NCBI GenBank assembly: GCA_054600435.1
Contig: BAAIJX010000008.1
Span: 248,001-312,000, forward strand
Source: Neophaeotheca triangularis
Lineage: Eukaryota
Direction of reading: 5' to 3'
DNA length: 64,000 nt
A program made the position numbers and the translations under genes. Below, one piece after another: positions 9,001-31,020 of this stretch (position 1 is its first letter; every line of letters starts with the position of its first letter). A model generated the notes under the pieces. That model was not told where the DNA came from, did not search any database, and saw only the letters and a program-made list of their open reading frames with translations.

Positions 9001-11404
9001 AGCTAGCATACCTACCAGCTCAGACTCTGGGAAGGCCAAGAAGCTTTCATTAGGCTTCAACATCCCCTCGCTAGCACCCAGCGAAGGCGAGGGCCTAGGG
9101 TTGGATCTGGAACAGGAGTTTGATCGGGTTGCAGAAAGCCAAAAGGTGGGCGATTACGATCTTCCTCCTCCCTCTTCCGACTCCCAAACCACCAAGCAGA
9201 CTGCAAGTAAACCCTCGCGTGCTTATTCTCAGGGCCCTACCCCTTACAGCCCTCACTCCGCCACCACTAATACTAACCATACTATCCGTTCACAGAAAGG
9301 ATATCTCATGCGCCAGAACACCAAGCTCGTTGTCGCCACCAACCGCAACTTCTCGAACCAGTCGCAAGGTTCCGGTAATGAGAATCCGATGTCGCCCACG
9401 GGAGAGTCTCGTCGTCGCTCTAAGCGAGAAAGCGGCGCCTGGCGCAGACCGTCTGGCGAACAGTATCTGAAGACCGAGCCTTGGAACGGTAAGAGCCGTC
9501 GCAGGAGCGTTCGCAACTCCAGCGCTCAGAAGAGTGCTGTTGAGAAAGAGCCTGCGCCCCCGCTTCCTGGTCAAGAGAGCGCTCTTGGGGTGGTAGAGGA
9601 GGACTTTGCCACTGGTCCCCCTGCGGAAGACATCAACGGTGAGGGCGTCGAGCGCGGTAGGCTCTTTGTCAAGGTTGTTGGTGTCAAGGATCTCGACCTT
9701 CCGATGCCAAAGAACGACCGCGTCTACTTCCAGCTTACCCTCGACAATGGCCTCCACTGCGTTACTACCAGTTCCCTGGAGCTCGGGAAGACTGCGCCCA
9801 TTGGACAAGAGTTCGAGCTCGTCGTTTTGAACGACCTCGAGTTCCAACTCACACTCACCACTAAACTTCCGCCTCCGCCGGCCGCTCCGATGCCTGCGCC
9901 ACCTTCACCAACCAAGTCTATCAGGCCTCAGAAGGCAACAGGGCTTTCCCGCTTCCTTACCTCTCCGAAGAAGCGCGCAGAGAAGGAGCGTCTCGAACGT
10001 GAAGCCTTCGAGGCGGAGCAGCTTGCAGCCCAGCGCGAAGCTGAGCGCAGGCAGCAAGCTCAAGTGAAGCCAAACGCCTGGACGCTGCTGCACGATCTTG
10101 TCGACAACAGCTCGGGATCTTTTGCCCGCGCGTACATCAATTTGTCGGCACACGAGGAGTCCTGCTTCGGCCGCCCACTGACCGTGGATGTACCCTGCTA
10201 CAACGAGTGGGCTGCGGAGAAGAACGCCAATGTCGTCAACTCGGTTCGTTCCAAGCGCGGAGGCAGAGCTGGCGGCGAAGTACGCAAGCCACCTTACGTT
10301 GTCGGCAAGTTGGAGTTGCAGTTGCTCTACGTCCCCAAGCCCAAGGGCGCAGGCGACGAGGAGATGCCCAAGTCTCTCTCTTCGGCTGTCCGCGAAATGG
10401 GCCGTGCAAGCGACCGCAAGGAAGTCATCTTCGAAGGCTGCCTGTCCCAACAAGGAGGCGATTGCACGCACTGGCGCCGCCGCTTCTTCCGCCTACAAGG
10501 CCCCAAATTGACAGCCTATCACGAGCACACGCATCAAAAGCGGGCCGTTATCAACCTGAGCAAAGCCAGCCGAGTCGTCGATGACAAGCGAACTCTCGTC
10601 GCGGATCCCAACAATGCCAATCCTGCTTCAGGCAAAGGCCGCCGCAAGAGTGCCTTCGCGGAAGAGGACGAAGGCTACCAGTACGTGGAAGAGGGGTTCC
10701 GCATCCGCTTCGCCAACGGTGAAACCATCGACTTCTACGCAGACGGTCGTCAACAAAAGGAGGAGTGGCTCGAAGTTCTAGGCCAAGTCATCGGCAAGCC
10801 CGACCCAGGCAAGGTCAAAACCGGCTGGACCGACCTCGTCCTTGCTCACGAGCGCGAGACCGGACGCCCTGCCCCACAGCAGCAGCACGAACTCCCGCCA
10901 GCGACCCCCACTGAGCCCGCCGCTCCTGTCCTCGAAGAGCGAACCGCGCCCGAAGCCCGCGACTTCACGGAGCCCGCGGCAGCACCAAGCCGCATCTCCA
11001 CCAGCACGCGCAGCCAACGTAGCCAGCAAACCCACCACAGCCAGGACTCATCGGACGCCTACCTCCCTCCCCCACGACCCGAGCAACGCAACTATCGCGA
11101 GGGCTCCAAATCCGCACCTACTTCTCCTCTGAAGTCTCAGCGCCTGACCGGCCAAGGTTTCCCACCCATGGCGCCGCCGCCGCCGAGGCGCGAGGCCCCT
11201 GGTTATTCCCCCACGAAGCAGCAGGCGGGTTCGGCGTCTTCGCGCTCGACGGCGGGGAGTGGTAAAGATAAGAAGTTGCCGGATCGGCCGCATAGCCAGG
11301 CTGGGGTCTTGGGTGAGGGGGACAGGAAGGGAGCGGGGACGCCGCAGATGGGGGTCAGGAGGGGCCATAGGGCGAGAGATGCTGTGAGGAGTATGATTTT
11401 TTAG
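6099..11404 (+). CDS. BUD4: Anillin-like bud-site selection/septation protein (anillin-homology/DUF1709 + PH domain); introns 6114-6190, 6332-6400, 9146-9295
   Basis: ATG 6099 (MEDTS) spliced to VQPLRISK; KGYLMRQNTK, RLFVKVVGVKDLDLP, TLDNGLHCV, and PH domain EGCLSQQGGDC..WRRRFF; introns carry GT, CTRAC branch and YAG signals. Confidence 0.88.
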
Positions 11405-23683: not shown

Positions 23684-24436
23684 TCACGAATTGAAAATAC
23701 GCGAGTACAGCAGCTCGTGCCTCCCCGCCCACAGATCCATGACAGGTACTGTGACAGCGGCGTCTGCGACTTTCGTCTCCCTCTCACGTGCGATGCAGGC
23801 TTTGATCTGTCTCTGTAGTTTCGGGCTCGCGAGCACTGCTTGCGATTGGTAAGGGCCCATGACGCTCGCCCGCACGGCCGCCGAGAGCAGGGCTTTGGCG
23901 TGGTTGAGTAGGAACAGGTACGCTGCGTCGTCTTCCGAGAGCGCCAAGGCAGCGCAGACGGCACCAAACAACGGCGCAAAATGAGCGTTGCGCAGAAGCC
24001 CGAAAACATCAGGTTTAGAAGTTTTCACGGCACTCGCGAACGCAGCCATTGCCTCCGACGCCACTACGCCCGCGGCATCGTCACTGGCAGATGCCTTGAG
24101 CGCTCGGTCCCAGATGGCAAGCAGCGCGCGGCCTTGCGAGACACTGGCGCGTCGGGCCACTGTGCAAGGCGTGCTGGCATCGACGTCGTTGTCGAGAGTT
24201 TCGAGCTGCGCTGGGTCGTGGTAGGCGGTTAGGACATAGGGTAGAGCGGTGCTGGCGAGGTTGGAGAGGGAGAGGTCGAGAAATGAGTCGAAAGCGCGGA
24301 GTCGGGAGGCGGCGGTGGTGTTGCTGCTTTTGGTGCGGGCCAGGAAGGATTCGAGGCCGCTGCTAAAGGCAAAGGAGCCTAGGGGGAGCGCGGAGTCGGA
24401 GAGTAGGAGGAGGGTGTGAAGGTTTGAGGAGCTCAT
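23684..24436 (-). CDS. ureF: Urease accessory protein
   Basis: LSDSALPLGSFAFSSGLES N-terminus; C-terminal HELLYSRIFNS. Confidence 0.95.
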   Translation of the reverse strand: MSSSNLHTLLLLSDSALPLGSFAFSSGLESFLARTKSSNTTAASRLRAFDSFLDLSLSNLASTALPYVLTAYHDPAQLETLDNDVDASTPCTVARRASVSQGRALLAIWDRALKASASDDAAGVVASEAMAAFASAVKTSKPDVFGLLRNAHFAPLFGAVCAALALSEDDAAYLFLLNHAKALLSAAVRASVMGPYQSQAVLASPKLQRQIKACIARERETKVADAAVTVPVMDLWAGRHELLYSRIFNS

Positions 24437-25089
24437 TTCTGGGGTTTGATGTTTCTTGGAGGTTGTTTGGTGTCGTTTTGGAGGTTCAGTGTGCCTCCCA
24501 GTGATGACGAGTTGCGGCTTGCGACAACTATCGGGTACCGTGCATGCTCCAGCGCCTTTTCCATCAAGCTAGGGTAGAACTAGACATATGGGTTATCTTG
24601 AGATGAAGTTGTGTTTCTATATGATATTGCCTGAGGCATCAACATCCCACTTCATCCAAAGAAGCTCCTCCAGGTCTCCATCACAAACCAGCATACCAGC
24701 CTTCCAGCTCATCAACCTTCCAAGGTTCCAAGGTTGTCTCGAGAGCCTAGAGACGGTGACGGTGACAGTGACGGTGACATTGATCACTCATCTCAGGCAG
24801 TGATCATCAGAGCTGCTTGACCCAAATGTAGCTTGTCCACCAAACGACTGCGCTGCTCTGCCACGCTTCACCGGTCTTGTAAGTCACGAGGCATGCCATG
24901 TGCATAGCATCGTGCATGTCGTTGCTTACAGTCGTCACATAATGTGCTTCCTGCATGCGCTGCCTTGCGGGGTTGAAGATATATATATTCACCGCTGACC
25001 CAACTCCTACGACTTCTTTTCACTCTTTCTTCTCGACTACATTTATCTACCCAGCCATCAGCCCCAGTTTATCAAGTATAGCAAGCAGA

Positions 25090-26382
25090 ATGCCAATCAC
25101 CGTCAAAATCGCCAACCATGAGGCCACTCCTTGGACCGAGGGAGACATCGCCAGCTCCATAGGCCTCCTTGAGAAAACCTCCCCACGACACTGGCGGAGA
25201 TGCCAGAGACTGGTACAAAGCTCCTTTAACGACTCCGAACTTAGCACGACGCACGTTTCGCCATCCGAGAACGGCCTCGTTTATGCAGCGTGGCACGCTT
25301 ACAGCAAGCATCATCACCTCGTGCTTCGACCGGAAGACGTCTGGTTCTCCATTCTGGCACAGCTGAGCTTCTACATCAACGCGCACGCCGAGGAGCTCCG
25401 CTCGTTCTTTGTCGACCATGAAGGTCAGGAGGAGCTCGAAGCCATCTCCGAAGTCGCGGACTTTGGAGCTCTGGCGGTTCAGATGACGGAATTGATGGGA
25501 AAGAAGGTTGTCGATCCTGGGTTGCGGGAGTGGGTCGCGCCCTCGTTCTCCACCACAACTCACGATGACACTGTCGTTGGGGCCGTCCTCTTCATGGGTG
25601 CTATGCAGAAGTATTTCAGCTTCGGGATGATGGTAACTTGCGGTCTGCCGTCAGTGACGCTGCTAGGCTCCGTGGACGACTGGAGAGACATCCTCCAGCG
25701 CCTGGACAAGATCGACCAGTTGGGAGAAGAACCAAAACACTTCGCCAACATGCTCCGCCCCATCCTTACCTACATGGTTATGACTTTTGAACACCCCGCC
25801 AGCGCCAAGGTCGACGCTTTCTGGAACCGCATCGTCCACCACAACTACATGGGCAGCGGCACCGACTACCTCTCCGGATGGCTCACGGCGTTCTGTTATT
25901 GGGACGAAGAAGGCACCGCCAAAAGGCCCTCGGAGGATTTGAACATCGATCTCTTCCGGGACAAAGGCTATCCAATCGTCTTCATGGACGCGATACCCGT
26001 CGGCTACGCCTCCGTGCCCGTAAAAGTCAACGACATGGGTCACCAATTCGACGCCACAATGGTCGCCGGCTTAGTCGGCATCGCCGCCGCCCCACACCCT
26101 GGCCATCACCAGCCCTCCCCTAGCGAAGACACCACCGAGTCTGGCCGAAGGGCCCCGGTCAGAGATGCCCTCCAACCCGTCTCGGGCTGGTGGATGTACG
26201 AGAATGAAGCGCCGGGAGAAGCGGAAGCGAGGACGACCGAGATGAAGCAGCTACAACAACAAATCGATCAGTACAAGGCGGAAATAGACGGATTGCGGCC
26301 TTCAGACTACGAGCGACAATGGGAGCTGTACTTGCGCATGTCGCCGTTGAGCCTGCGCTTTCATGAATTGGAGGCGTACTAG
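25090..26382 (+). CDS. DUF4419 family protein
   Basis: AYSKHHHLVLRPEDVWFSIL, P.FSTTT..D, CGLPSVTLLG..DW, YLSGWLTAF motifs typical of DUF4419. Confidence 0.85.
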   Translation: MPITVKIANHEATPWTEGDIASSIGLLEKTSPRHWRRCQRLVQSSFNDSELSTTHVSPSENGLVYAAWHAYSKHHHLVLRPEDVWFSILAQLSFYINAHAEELRSFFVDHEGQEELEAISEVADFGALAVQMTELMGKKVVDPGLREWVAPSFSTTTHDDTVVGAVLFMGAMQKYFSFGMMVTCGLPSVTLLGSVDDWRDILQRLDKIDQLGEEPKHFANMLRPILTYMVMTFEHPASAKVDAFWNRIVHHNYMGSGTDYLSGWLTAFCYWDEEGTAKRPSEDLNIDLFRDKGYPIVFMDAIPVGYASVPVKVNDMGHQFDATMVAGLVGIAAAPHPGHHQPSPSEDTTESGRRAPVRDALQPVSGWWMYENEAPGEAEARTTEMKQLQQQIDQYKAEIDGLRPSDYERQWELYLRMSPLSLRFHELEAY

Positions 26383-27352
26383 TTCCCAACTCCCCGAAGC
26401 GAAAGCTTGCTGCTTCCTTACGAGATTCTCTGCGGCAGGGCAGACCCACGATAATGGCAGAAGTACGTAACTACTACCATTGGCTCAGCATGCCGCAACC
26501 GATGTGAGCCCATTAGGTATCTGCAAGGTAGAATAAGATCAATCGCAGGCAAGTCGTGGGAGAAACAGTCCATTTGCTCCACGTATTCATTCTCAATTGT
26601 ATCAAACATCCTCATCTCCTGCTCCCATTCTTTGCTTGCGCGCCCTTTTCGTCCATCCCTCTTATCACGCGCAGCACCTAGTAGGCCAATACCACAAGCG
26701 CAATGTTTCGCATCGCCATTCTAGCAGCTGCCTGGAAAGTCATGGCGATTGTCCCACGGAGAGACAGGGATTGCGATTAGCGAATTGAACAGTATCGTGA
26801 GTAGGAACCGGAACCTCTTGTTGGGGGCTGAGCCCGTGGCCAACGGGTCTAATTCAGGGGCTAGCCAGAGGTCGTTGGAGAGCCGGGGCGCGGGTCAAGG
26901 GGCACAGCGAGACGTTCGTAATTCGACATTTGGGTATTATCGGTATTGTCTCTGAGGAGACAAGGCAGTGAGTTGCACGCAGACGGAGAGGACTGACAGG
27001 TATGGGGTGCATTTCAAGAATTTCCGTTGAAAGCGTGAATGTGAGAGACGTAGAGCTGTGGCTCAGGAGTCAGGTACCAGTAGTGTTGACGCAAGGTCCC
27101 CTTTGAGACGCAGACGACTGGTAGTGTTGGGAGGTCTCTAGAGTTTGGGTCTTGGTCTTGGGGGTGTCCTTGGAGCTCTTATCGCTCCAGTAACGTGAGT
27201 GGTGGTAGTGTTTGCTACCTAGGTAGACCCGAATACGCTAAGGGAGACTGGCACTGAGGGACACCTGACCAGACTACCCAGTAATCTGTCGAACGGCGCG
27301 ACCATGCATGCGCCTGAGGCTTGCTAGAGTTTCTAACATGTCGTCGTTAAGA

Positions 27353-27781
27353 GGCCGGCACAACGTGAGGTGAGGTCAAAAGCCGGCCCCTGTCCCCAGA
27401 GAGGTCTGAGAGTGAGACAACATATTAATTATTTCCGCCAACGCTCTCACCGACCACTCGACCGCAAAGTCGAGTGGTCAACCCGGGAGTTCGTTTCACT
27501 CGCCGAAGGTCAGGGGTCTTTAATCATCTCCCAAAAGGGAAAAAATCAAAACATTAAAGCTGTGCGTTCGAAACTCGACGCCGTCAACACCTTCAATGGG
27601 TTTAATTGTATCTTGCAATTAATTACTACTGAGCACTAGAGTTTGGACTTCTAGTGGGATCGGGGTTGTGCCGCGCTCTCGAAAGGGGGCGTGTGCCGGG
27701 TCTCAGCATTGGAGGGTCGTTGACGGCCGCAGTCTTTTTTGGCCTTTGTTCTTTCACAAGGTCCGAACAAACTTTTTCTTT
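27353..27781 (+). ncRNA. Unidentified structured RNA candidate
   Basis: Nested hairpins with G-U pairs on the + strand, a GAAA tetraloop, A-box-like and B-box-like motifs, and T-runs; no coding ORF (see findings). Confidence 0.45.
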
Positions 27782-28180
27782 TTCTTTTCCACTTTGGTAA
27801 GTTTTGTTACCTCGTTTCCAGGCGTGATAGATACTAAGCGCGATGGGAATGAAAAGACGCCTTGCAAGGCTAGGAAAAGAGCACATCGTCCATGATACCT
27901 ACAGGCTACATCGTCCGCCAACAAGTCCGTTGAGTATCCTTCGTACTCATCGCCCCTGGGTTTTGTGACCGAACAAGAGCAAAATCTGACATTCTGACCG
28001 CCTCTCACCACGCGAACGGCCCGGAAGGTGTCTGGAGTTTGATCTTGGTATCTTTGCCGATGACTTGTGACTAACCAACCAGATCGCCATCACCAAAATA
28101 CGAACCTTGGAAAATCTCGTCCCATCACCCATCCTCGCTGGCCGCAATCTTTGCGCCATTCCCTCACTCCTTGTACTGCA

Positions 28181-30022
28181 CTACATCCAGGCTGGTGGCC
28201 ACTTGAAAACCACATCAGTCTCATTCTTGGTGCTGTAGAATACCAATCCGTTCACCCACTGCACGGTGCTCAGCAATGGTTTGCCCTCCGTCCCCACTCC
28301 CTCATGTCGAACCGCAAGTGACACATGGAGTTGCCGACGCAGCTTGTCTTTATGCATATGGTTGCTCCACGAAGTGTATACGTGCTTGAATGGATCTGGA
28401 GCGCCGCGGAACATCTCGTCTGGAAGGCCAACAAAGATCCCGCAATCGTCGGGTGATTTAGATGAGCTGGCGAGGTGTAAAGTTTTGTCAGCACTGATGG
28501 CTTCGGCGACGGATATAGCCATGAGGTCCATGTGCCGTTCTGCAGGGGAACGGGTCGCGCTTTGAAACTCCTCGGCAAGATAGCCTCGAAGTCTCCTCTG
28601 TAAGGGGCCTTGGCTTAGTCGGGAAGCAAGGCTTTCGAGACGACCTCGGTGATAATCGTCCAGTCTCGGGGCGCGGTGGTCGCGGCGCTTGCGCTTTCGT
28701 GACAGCGTCGGAAGACTCCAGCACTTTGTCCGCAGGACATCGTTGATTATCCATAGATGACCTTTGGTTTGAATCCCTTCTCTTTCGAATGTTACTTGAG
28801 GGAGTCGACAGCCCTTCAGGTACGTGAGGTGCCTGGATTTTACTGGCGGGTCGAACGCGGCGGTCGTTTTTCGGTTCAGATATGCGCCAACGTCCGTTTC
28901 GGGGGACCATGTTTCGATTTGCTGGCTATCTCTGAGAATCTCCCCGTTCAGGAGGTACATTGCGAGCAAGCAAAGCTGCACGTCATGCTCCTTCTCGAGC
29001 ATCGTGCAGGGATTGAATCGGATGGCGTAATCGCAACTGTTAGCCGCAATGCGAAGACAGTCATGTTCTTTCCCAGTCTGTCTCTGCTGGACATCGGCGA
29101 TGATTCTTGCGGACATTGCCTTGCCTTTTGCATCGCCCGATAGATGGTATAGCACGTTGAACTTAGCAAACCTCTGGAGCATTCCTTCATACGGCCGGGC
29201 CATCGCCAGTTGTTCTGTTTGGCATGCATGCAGAAACAATGTTGCTTGTTCGCGGAAGGTGGTCATGGGAAGGCACATCTCATCCTCGAATAATCCGAAG
29301 TCCGGAGCATTTGTATTGGGGCCACGGCGGATGAGTAAGTCCAAGGCTATCGATGAGAGGTAGTCCTCCTGGTAGATCCACCCTCTTGTCCACCATGGAT
29401 CGTCATACAGCTGCTGTAGCACTCGCAATACCGTTTGCGGACAGCAAAATTCTGTCAGTCTAGGGTCGGCGTCGTCGCGCCACGGCTCCCACTCGACACA
29501 CCGGCTTGACATCAGGTCTTCCAGGGCGTCGACTTCCTCCTGAGAACTGAGCTCCACCGCTAGTAGCCCAACAGGATACGAACTAACACGATAGATCAGG
29601 TCCATGGAGTTTATCGCTTGCTGTTTTGCCTCTCCGTCAATTTGAGGGCTACACTCCTGGTCGATCCAAATGTACGGAGTCTCGCATACTTCGGCGTATC
29701 GAATGACTCGGTCGAGAACCTCATTGCGCACTTTGTTAGATCGCGGCGGCTTGGCTGAAGGATAGCAAATGTCGTAAGCGCCTGCCATGTTGCGCTTAGG
29801 ATTAGGCTCATTCCAGCAATATGAAACGGCGACATAGTCCCCAGTTTCGACAGCGTCCAAGTCTCTATTCAGCTTCAGGACGCTCTCCCCTAGCTCGTCC
29901 ACCTTCAACAGCAGTACATCCTCGAAGAATGTGGCTGATTTGTCGTTCGGCACTTGCTCACATTCCATGTCAAGCAGCCTCAAGACCACCGATGGTTTTG
30001 CGGACTCGTGCTGTGCCTCCAT
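28181..30022 (-). CDS. HET-domain (PF06985-type heterokaryon incompatibility) protein
   Basis: YVAVSYCW, YIWIDQECSPQ, KQQAINSMDLIY, WWTRGWIYQE: the three conserved HET blocks. Confidence 0.9.
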   Translation of the reverse strand: MEAQHESAKPSVVLRLLDMECEQVPNDKSATFFEDVLLLKVDELGESVLKLNRDLDAVETGDYVAVSYCWNEPNPKRNMAGAYDICYPSAKPPRSNKVRNEVLDRVIRYAEVCETPYIWIDQECSPQIDGEAKQQAINSMDLIYRVSSYPVGLLAVELSSQEEVDALEDLMSSRCVEWEPWRDDADPRLTEFCCPQTVLRVLQQLYDDPWWTRGWIYQEDYLSSIALDLLIRRGPNTNAPDFGLFEDEMCLPMTTFREQATLFLHACQTEQLAMARPYEGMLQRFAKFNVLYHLSGDAKGKAMSARIIADVQQRQTGKEHDCLRIAANSCDYAIRFNPCTMLEKEHDVQLCLLAMYLLNGEILRDSQQIETWSPETDVGAYLNRKTTAAFDPPVKSRHLTYLKGCRLPQVTFEREGIQTKGHLWIINDVLRTKCWSLPTLSRKRKRRDHRAPRLDDYHRGRLESLASRLSQGPLQRRLRGYLAEEFQSATRSPAERHMDLMAISVAEAISADKTLHLASSSKSPDDCGIFVGLPDEMFRGAPDPFKHVYTSWSNHMHKDKLRRQLHVSLAVRHEGVGTEGKPLLSTVQWVNGLVFYSTKNETDVVFKWPPAWM

Positions 30023-31020
30023 CGTAGTAGATGTCAGAAAACACTAACTGTCAAGGATGGATTTTTAGAAGAGGGATAGTGGGTATTATAGCCATATTCA
30101 GGGTAAATACTGAGCCCGTCGGTAGAGAGGCGCAGTCTAGCCCCTCGTTCGTATGCAGTATCTTGTACCTTTGGCGAACTAGAGTAGGTACCTCACGGCG
30201 AGTTCCGAATTGCCTCAAGCTGCGTAGATGATGGAGAGCTTCAAAGAAGACTGATTTGAGCACGAGAGATGGGGTATGTATTACGACTGTTTAGTGGATT
30301 CGGAGGCCTACGAGTGTCTCCATTGTGACCCGATAGAGGCATCATGACTGGCAAAGTGCGGCCTCGTGAGGCCTTCAGCTGGTTGAACAATCTCAAAGAA
30401 GCTGGGGATAGCTATCCTCATAGGCTACTGTAAGGTATTCACTAGAAGCTCGCTCAGGTTGCGTTGGCCGATAGCTGCACAGCCCTCAAGGCTCAAGGCA
30501 CTGGAGCCTGATTCGTTCGGCTCGATTGACGAAATTCGGGCGGGGGGAGAGAAGGTACTAGTAGGTATACCGGCCTGAATACGTCGCCATTCTGGTTTCG
30601 TGAGTAGCTTAAGTGTGAAGCTGTTGGAGACGCAAATAGAAGGACGAGAAGTTGATGTTTCGATGAGCGTTGGAAGTACAAGATAGAGTTCGGACGCTGT
30701 GATCTCGTGTTTCCACCGCCCGCTGTGACGACGTCTCGTTTCATCCAAGTTTCGGTCGGTCACGTGTTGTTAGCACGAAAGGATAGTAATCGTGACCATA
30801 CAAAGGTATCAATAACCAAAGCTGAGGTATCTAGGTACGGTATGCTCTTAAGTGAGGTATTCAGGGGTGAGGTGAGGTTTACATTGTACAAGTCACAAAG
30901 TGTAAAAAGGTGGGAGTGAAGAAAGGTGGACCGTGCCAAGCGGTCGTCGGTGATTGGCTGAACCGGCCGGTCGGGGTAGAGAGTCGCGCCTTCCTGAAAC
31001 GCAGCTCTTGCCTGTAACCT

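Follow-up and report, generated by a model that had tools for sequence, protein, structure and literature searches.

The 1.8-kb gap between a DUF4419 gene on the + strand and a convergent HET gene on the - strand raises the question of whether it holds an RNA gene and, if so, of what kind. A sequence-only reading of the 64,000-nt stretch of DNA analysed here (the window) had placed in this gap a highly structured RNA candidate of about 400 nt with Pol III-like signals (27353-27802). The genome is that of a Dothideomycete, probably of Capnodiales type, as indicated by the LTV1 protein encoded in the window, which is 67-72% identical to its best named matches, from Hortaea, Acrodontium, Cladosporium and Friedmanniomyces. 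The genes on either side of the candidate are the following.

24943-26382, + strand: DUF4419 gene, stop-to-stop frame (PF14388, E = 1.8e-106)
28181-30043, - strand: HET-domain gene, stop-to-stop frame, convergent (PF06985, E = 1.9e-17)

Extent, promoter and fold of the candidate unit

All stems and motifs listed in the sequence-only reading lie where it had placed them, and every helix that it named pairs. Its size of about 400 nt has to be reduced, since the unit that recurs at other loci measures about 290 nt, and it is a Pol III transcription unit of this length, on the + strand at 27452-27740, that we predict from the sequence. The unit and its parts are as follows.

27452-27740, + strand: predicted Pol III unit, about 289 nt; 5' end deduced with an accuracy of about 5 nt
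27452-27479, + strand: 5' hairpin of 11 perfect bp, whose 3' arm is the A box; pair probabilities 0.98-1.0
27467-27477, + strand: A box, 10 of 11 positions of the consensus, and 11 of 11 in one paralogue (the contig of the related strain that diverges before 27490)
27490-27522, + strand: conserved block of 33 nt, for which no difference is listed in a paralogue that is divergent to its left and right; its 5' part is less certain because differences near contig ends go unlisted
27518-27559, + strand: 7-bp stem CTTTAAT/ATTAAAG, enclosing an A-rich, indel-prone loop
27566-27574, + strand: B box, agreeing with the consensus throughout, 99 nt past the A box
27580-27727, + strand: 3' domain, with a closing helix of about 19 bp (27580-27598 with 27707-27727)
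27602-27622, + strand: hairpin A, AU-rich, 9 bp, with a two-sided change at 27609/27615
27634-27656, + strand: hairpin C, 9 bp, one bulged U, UUGG loop
27672-27693, + strand: hairpin D, 9 bp, GAAA loop; 5 bp in the related strain
27735-27740, + strand: T6 Pol III terminator; in the related strain, T-runs follow at each of the two divergent 3' ends

According to PMC5095917, Pol III genes typically have internal A and B boxes, leaders that bear the promoter and terminators of T5-T6, which is the minimum for termination in yeast. The Pol III-like signals reported earlier stand as far as the B box and T6 are concerned, while the better place for the A box is 27467-27477 and not 27475, where it had been put. 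The combination of A box, B box and T5 occurs once in the window, whereas 100 block shuffles averaged 0.07 occurrences and six of them reached one; the A-box pattern used for this count had been loosened after the site at 27467 had been seen. Downstream of T6, the T5 runs at 27773-27777 and 27779-27783 may act as back-up terminators. A second A-box/B-box pair, 36 nt apart on the - strand near 9832, lies within the anillin/PH gene with no T5 after it and is probably due to chance.

We expressed fold strength as z-scores against dinucleotide shuffles (n = 150 per segment). The highest excess was found for the 3' domain (27580-27727), with z = -5.82 on the + strand, where none of the 150 shuffles was as good, and -4.54 on the - strand. 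The 5' part (27452-27579) gave -3.35 on the + strand and -3.98 on the - strand; the + strand value is attributable to the 11-bp hairpin, because 27480-27579 by itself shows no fold excess (z = +0.39). For 27452-27734, the scores were -4.67 (+) and -4.41 (-). Upstream, 27353-27451 reached -1.5, with 11 of 150 shuffles equally good, and downstream, 27741-27802 reached only -0.45, so the fold-strength check proposed in the sequence-only reading came out far from zero for the 3' domain but not for the two flanks. The 148-nt 3' domain also ranks first among 255 window tiles of the same length (z = -6.66; runner-up -3.44), on a grid that was placed to coincide exactly with it and that biases the ranking in its favour. 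Folding energy does not decide the strand, because the whole 401-nt stretch scores better on the - strand (z = -4.56) than on the + strand (z = -3.20). The earlier assignment to a folded RNA of the + strand is nevertheless favoured on the grounds of promoter-box order and of the G-U-preserving changes described below.

The outer 9 bp of the closing helix have pair probabilities ≥0.94, and in the window copy the helix is extended by pairing of 27559-27564 with 27728-27734; in one paralogue, read by eye, the 3' tail would instead pair with 27575-27580. The stem at 27518-27559 competes with an alternative fold in the full-length ensemble. For a further stem named earlier, CTGAG/CTCAG, the sequences are in place, but the pair probabilities amount to just about 0.2. 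Hairpin D is flanked on both sides by TGTGCCG (27665-27700), which places two GTGCC strands opposite one another; they would make up a symmetric internal loop that may serve to bind protein. A 15-nt inverted repeat joins 27350-27364 to 27665-27679 (87% complementary, 300 nt apart); its first arm lies outside the unit, and similar inverted-repeat pairs are frequent (89 in 7 kb). Also outside the repeated unit, 27773-27860 has a pyrimidine tract followed by GTAAGT (27797), by TACTAAG, which resembles a branch site, and, about 18 nt further on, by a possible AAG acceptor; these signals may mark an intron in a + strand transcript that lacks annotation, or may have arisen by chance.

Copies and sequence changes in a related strain

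Of eight sequencing runs, none of them on record as RNA, five contain parts of the stretch, and contigs from four of the eight (X1, X3, X4 and X5) were compared with it. Runs X4 and X5 contribute one near-identical scrap each (27719-27882 and 27100-27250) and are uninformative on conservation, and run X1 possibly stems from the same source as the window DNA, which makes it not independent; in one of its contigs (depth 3) the A-run at 27540-27545 has one A more than the window, possibly an error. All conservation evidence comes from the difference tables of run X3, a relative represented by 23 contigs. Between 26200 and 28300, this run contains two haplotypes of similar depth (about 62-68), about 99% and about 95% identical to the window, one of them with a break at 26989/26990, which suggests that the sample is hybrid, diploid or mixed.

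The summed depth of the X3 contigs is 246-494 in four bins (27478-27761), compared with 68-166 in the other 26 of the 30 bins. Depth does not equal copy number, but the contigs also have loose ends at both borders of the high-depth region, an observation that is independent of depth. The extra contigs span 27469-27741 only. On the 5' side, there are two different contexts, one before 27469 (two contigs) and one before 27490 (one contig), and on the 3' side there are again two, behind 27726 and behind 27741, both of which enter T-runs. The related strain therefore carries at least two further copies that share only this unit, which answers the earlier question about copy number with at least three loci and few copies seen. 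In the two contigs that diverge before 27469, the upstream letters differ, yet by eye they still pair with the A-box strand. The part shared by the copies leaves out the window's pair of stems further upstream, the hairpin downstream and the GTAAGT donor, all of which the sequence-only reading had made part of the RNA and which fall in the weakly folding flanks (z = -1.5 and -0.45).

The comparison of the X3 copies draws on difference tables, which give the paralogues in part, with 16 further pieces and changes near contig ends outside them. Among the best-supported 40 of 81 substitutions, at least six lie inside the unit, three at paired positions and three in loops. The paired ones are at 27523 (A-U to G-U) and at 27609 with 27615 (U-G to G-U); all three keep a pair on the + strand, each time as G-U, and none would do so on the - strand. 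The remaining differences change the hairpins in loop, bulge or length. The loop of hairpin A is altered at 27612-27613 and is enlarged by one insertion; two 3-nt deletions fall in the A-rich loop of the 27518-27559 stem, one of which abolishes the TCCC/GGGA hairpin, a stem named earlier that is present in the window and lost in this paralogue; and the bulge of hairpin C at 27649 is missing from a deep contig. Hairpin D is shortened by deletions of 4 nt at 27677 and 4 nt at 27685 in one contig and of 2 nt at 27679 and 6 nt at 27683 in another, and either pattern results in a 5-bp stem with a 4-nt loop. Since both contigs are short at hairpin D, the orthologous allele must also differ from the window by this indel. 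The closing helix is unbroken by any listed change. Independent stem changes are few, comprising two substitution events and three indel patterns, and the near-identity of the copies could stem from recent duplication or gene conversion.

In the flank-bridging contigs, which represent the orthologous allele, there are 0 listed substitutions in 202 nt inside the unit versus 11 in 427 nt outside (Fisher p = 0.02), a deficit that reaches p = 0.004 against the wider flank rate of 2.7%. The segment 27353-27451 has three listed substitutions in 99 nt, which equals the flank rate. The one listed change in the stem at 27407-27449, outside the repeated unit, is 27409 A to G and keeps its pair as G-U, a single event that leaves a longer 5' form of the RNA at this locus conceivable. 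The conservation expected earlier is accordingly seen as helix-keeping changes among the X3 copies but not as a homologue from another species.

Comparison with known RNA families and homologue searches

The earlier statement that the candidate could not be matched to known RNA families is supported by Rfam, which returned 0 hits at gathering score over the 64 kb and, in narrower scans, only three and two sub-threshold hits to unrelated families. The best of these, Caulobacter CC0196 (22.9 bits, cut-off 35), shares a hairpin loop and was dismissed as chance, and the snoRNA sR18 stayed at 10.3 bits against a cut-off of 45. A search over all families with E up to 10 found no match of the unit to Afu_182 or Afu_309; this comparison covers RF01496 (Afu_182) and RF01512 (Afu_309).

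Individual RNA classes were rejected on their own features. ARAGORN found no tRNA genes and Rfam gave no tRNA hit, and calls of intron-containing tRNAs at lowered thresholds were no better than the control, in which 11 of 40 random pieces were also called. For Pezizomycotina telomerase RNA, whose template has about 1.5 CCCUAA repeats, we found no CCCTAA on either strand of 24000-30000, and a P6.1-like hairpin with a 4-bp stem and an NUNGN loop has no match in the unit, the sole match in the gap lying outside it at 26738. The remaining classes were compared by core motifs: an isolated TCAGG at 27510 has no partner strand for SRP RNA and Rfam has no hit; CR-I/CR-V (P4) of RNase P/MRP is not found and Rfam has no match; there is no box C, a single internal CTGA and H-like words confined to the A-run for snoRNA/U3; and the core motifs of snRNAs are absent or isolated. 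Hammerhead and group I ribozymes were rejected for want of CUGANGA, of R or S elements and of an Rfam hit, and an HDV-like ribozyme was rejected on inspection by eye.

Searches for homologues covered metagenome, viral, prokaryotic, phage and plasmid sequences. None of 116 pattern loci (113 metagenome contigs, three viral contigs) aligned with the unit, in a metagenome scan whose pattern was drawn from the 5' half and which homologues retaining only the 3' domain would escape. Two other patterns matched one and zero loci in viral contigs, the single locus (L117) lying outside the alignment set; the pattern scans of prokaryote genomes gave 0 and 0 matches, and blastn against phages and plasmids gave chance matches only. 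As the searched collections are poor in fungal genomes, the absence of homologues hardly bears on how widely the family is distributed. The candidate RNA is suggested by none of the 15 motif headings of PMC5640933, nor is it described in the literature on Pol III RNAs of filamentous fungi that lay within our scope, most subscription journals being outside it. The window itself holds no second copy of the unit. The 9-mer CTAGAGTTT occurs in it four times (27138, 27324, 27636 and 57374; 0.34 expected), three of them within 500 nt on the + strand, and 27131-27179 resembles 27631-27679 by eye, although strict scoring of 1268 tiles did not place it in the top 10; it is perhaps a decayed piece of the 3' domain.

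Competing explanations and possible function

The order of boxes and terminator, the strong fold, the limitation of the copies to the unit and the helix-keeping changes all support a Pol III gene family. We consider it very probable that the locus is a genuine Pol III unit whose fold is under selection, be its product an intact RNA, a SINE-like element or a milRNA precursor. The best explanation, to which we give about an even chance, is a small family of at least three loci whose RNA of about 290 nt works as an intact, folded, protein-bound molecule. The proposal of a structured Pol III-type noncoding RNA gene without an Rfam family is supported for the + strand, and the SINE-like alternative offered beside it has become the weaker one.

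A low-copy SINE-like retroposon would combine a Pol III head with a 3' domain recognised by a LINE reverse transcriptase, its fold being kept for mobility, and would account for the A/B-box head, the unrelated body, the sharp borders and the several loci. PMC5063351 describes Aspergillus AfuSINE2 as 140-493 bp long, of low copy, upstream of an oligo-T tract and with heads that do not fold as a cloverleaf, and the candidate shares with it the A/B-box head, the unrelated body, the oligo-T, the low copy number and the size range. Unlike such SINEs, however, the candidate has no target-site duplication (the longest word shared around the unit is 4 nt, although old duplications can decay) and no A-rich or short-repeat tail at its 3' end, every copy having a T-run of its own. 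Moreover, none of the 23 X3 contigs shows a joint that skips the unit, few copies are seen, substitutions accumulate more slowly in the orthologous copy than beside it, and a derivation of the head from a tRNA scores no higher than shuffles do (best score 88.3 over 770 internal deletions versus up to 95.0 in 12 shuffles); we regard a retroposon as unlikely. The unit might instead be a Pol III pri-milRNA whose A/B-box leader is cut off and whose 19-26-bp closing helix is cut by Dicer, with the guide coming from the arm beside the T-run. PMC3547838 describes the four main milRNA genes of Neurospora as transcribed by Pol III, with a T-run immediately behind the milRNA; pri-milR-1 measures about 170 nt, and RNase Z frees milR-4 from a tRNA leader. 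The candidate resembles milR-1 to milR-4 in being intergenic, in placing a long stem directly before the T-run and in precursor size; its helix begins just past the B box, ends 7 nt (window) or 0 nt (one paralogue) before the T-run and has arms without a listed difference. Against this stand its branched interior of about 105 nt, large and constrained, which preserves hairpins through compensating changes that a Dicer precursor does not need, the conserved 33-nt block within the leader, the several copies and the lack of a joined real tRNA, as well as the description of milR-1 in the same source as having neither A nor B box. A milRNA precursor thus appears rather doubtful.

That the locus is the relic of a promoter or a TFIIIC landing site, followed by a tail whose many hairpins are incidental and yielding at most a functionless RNA, would agree with the failure to find homologues across species, but it sits badly with the z-score of -5.82 and first rank of the 3' domain among the 255 tiles, with structure-keeping changes 40-120 nt past the B box and with too few substitutions in the orthologous allele, and we judge it improbable. 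Interior hairpins that are kept as structure go beyond the needs of either such a relic or a plain Dicer precursor. A much-diverged known RNA, such as the 3' part of telomerase RNA, SRP RNA, RNase P/MRP RNA or a snoRNA, is suggested by hairpin C, which we take to be loosely like P6.1 of telomerase RNA, and by a unit size that is presumably compatible with SRP or RNase P/MRP RNA. In addition, the pyrimidine run, GTAAGT at 27797 and TACTAAG recall fungal telomerase RNA processing signals as outlined in PMC3603654 and PMC4299874, and the nearby pyrimidine run, donor-like site and short hairpin with a U/G-rich loop are likenesses to the Pezizomycotina telomerase RNA treated in PMC3592445. However, the candidate is multicopy and about 290 nt long, compared with about 2 kb (PMC3592445), carries Pol III boxes, and has no template, no CCCTAA on either strand of 24000-30000 and no strict P6.1 hairpin (4 bp with NUNGN) in the unit; the signals reminiscent of splicing fall beyond the part that is repeated, and in Aspergillus the donor reads AUA(A/C)GU. 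Rfam gave no hit, and the core motifs of the other families are absent or isolated; a diverged known RNA seems very improbable.

In the reading that we prefer, an intact, folded and protein-bound RNA, TFIIIC would bind the internal A and B boxes, and Pol III would initiate near 27450 and terminate in T6. The 5' hairpin and the long closing helix would shield the two ends of the RNA, and its oligo-U 3' end would bind La; TFIIIC binding, end protection and La binding are taken here from general Pol III biology. The weakest step is the 3' domain as a protein-binding platform. Because the closing helix and the junction sequences do not vary, in contrast to the length and loop of the three hairpin tips, the RNA might be an abundant scaffold or decoy, in the size class of Aspergillus Afu-182, Afu-202 and Afu-309. 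The promoter-bearing 5' half would be either retained or trimmed as in yeast RNase P RNA, and the conserved 33-nt block that lies there argues that it may be retained. It is a bolder and unlikely extension that the family represents a new abundant class of Pol III RNA in Capnodiales-type fungi, whose closing helix and branched head would serve as a decoy or scaffold for dsRNA-binding or silencing proteins and so tune silencing or stress responses. Adenovirus VA RNA is an analogous decoy for such proteins.

The closest known systems are partial matches. Afu-182, Afu-202 and Afu-309 of Aspergillus fumigatus are likewise intergenic structured RNAs of filamentous ascomycetes, 270-320 nt long and of unknown mechanism according to PMC2377427; they are conserved across species there, whereas the candidate is multicopy with copies seen in one relative. 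Yeast RPR1-type Pol III genes, as described in PMC5095917, also have boxes in the 5' part, followed by a helix-closed domain and a T-run terminator, but the candidate lacks the RNase P core motifs and an Rfam hit, and its closed domain is only 148 nt long. As read from the sequence, the unit is a well-bounded candidate RNA gene family with a promoter of known kind and membership in no known RNA family. Known structured RNAs of about 300 nt are few, and they have phenotypes without a mechanism; one example is afu-182, which influences the azole response (10.1101/2025.10.16.682787). The clear promoter, clear ends and natural compensating changes make this multicopy gene easy to test. Should it prove conserved across Capnodiales-type fungi, a group to which both extremotolerant black fungi and leaf-spot fungi belong, it would constitute a new RNA family.

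As to the wider setting, a row of housekeeping genes (DEAD helicase, anillin/PH protein, YL1, GTPase, LTV1 and UreF) occupies 3681-24568 and stops just upstream of the block formed by the DUF4419 gene, the RNA and the HET gene, a block that may be a variable insertion.
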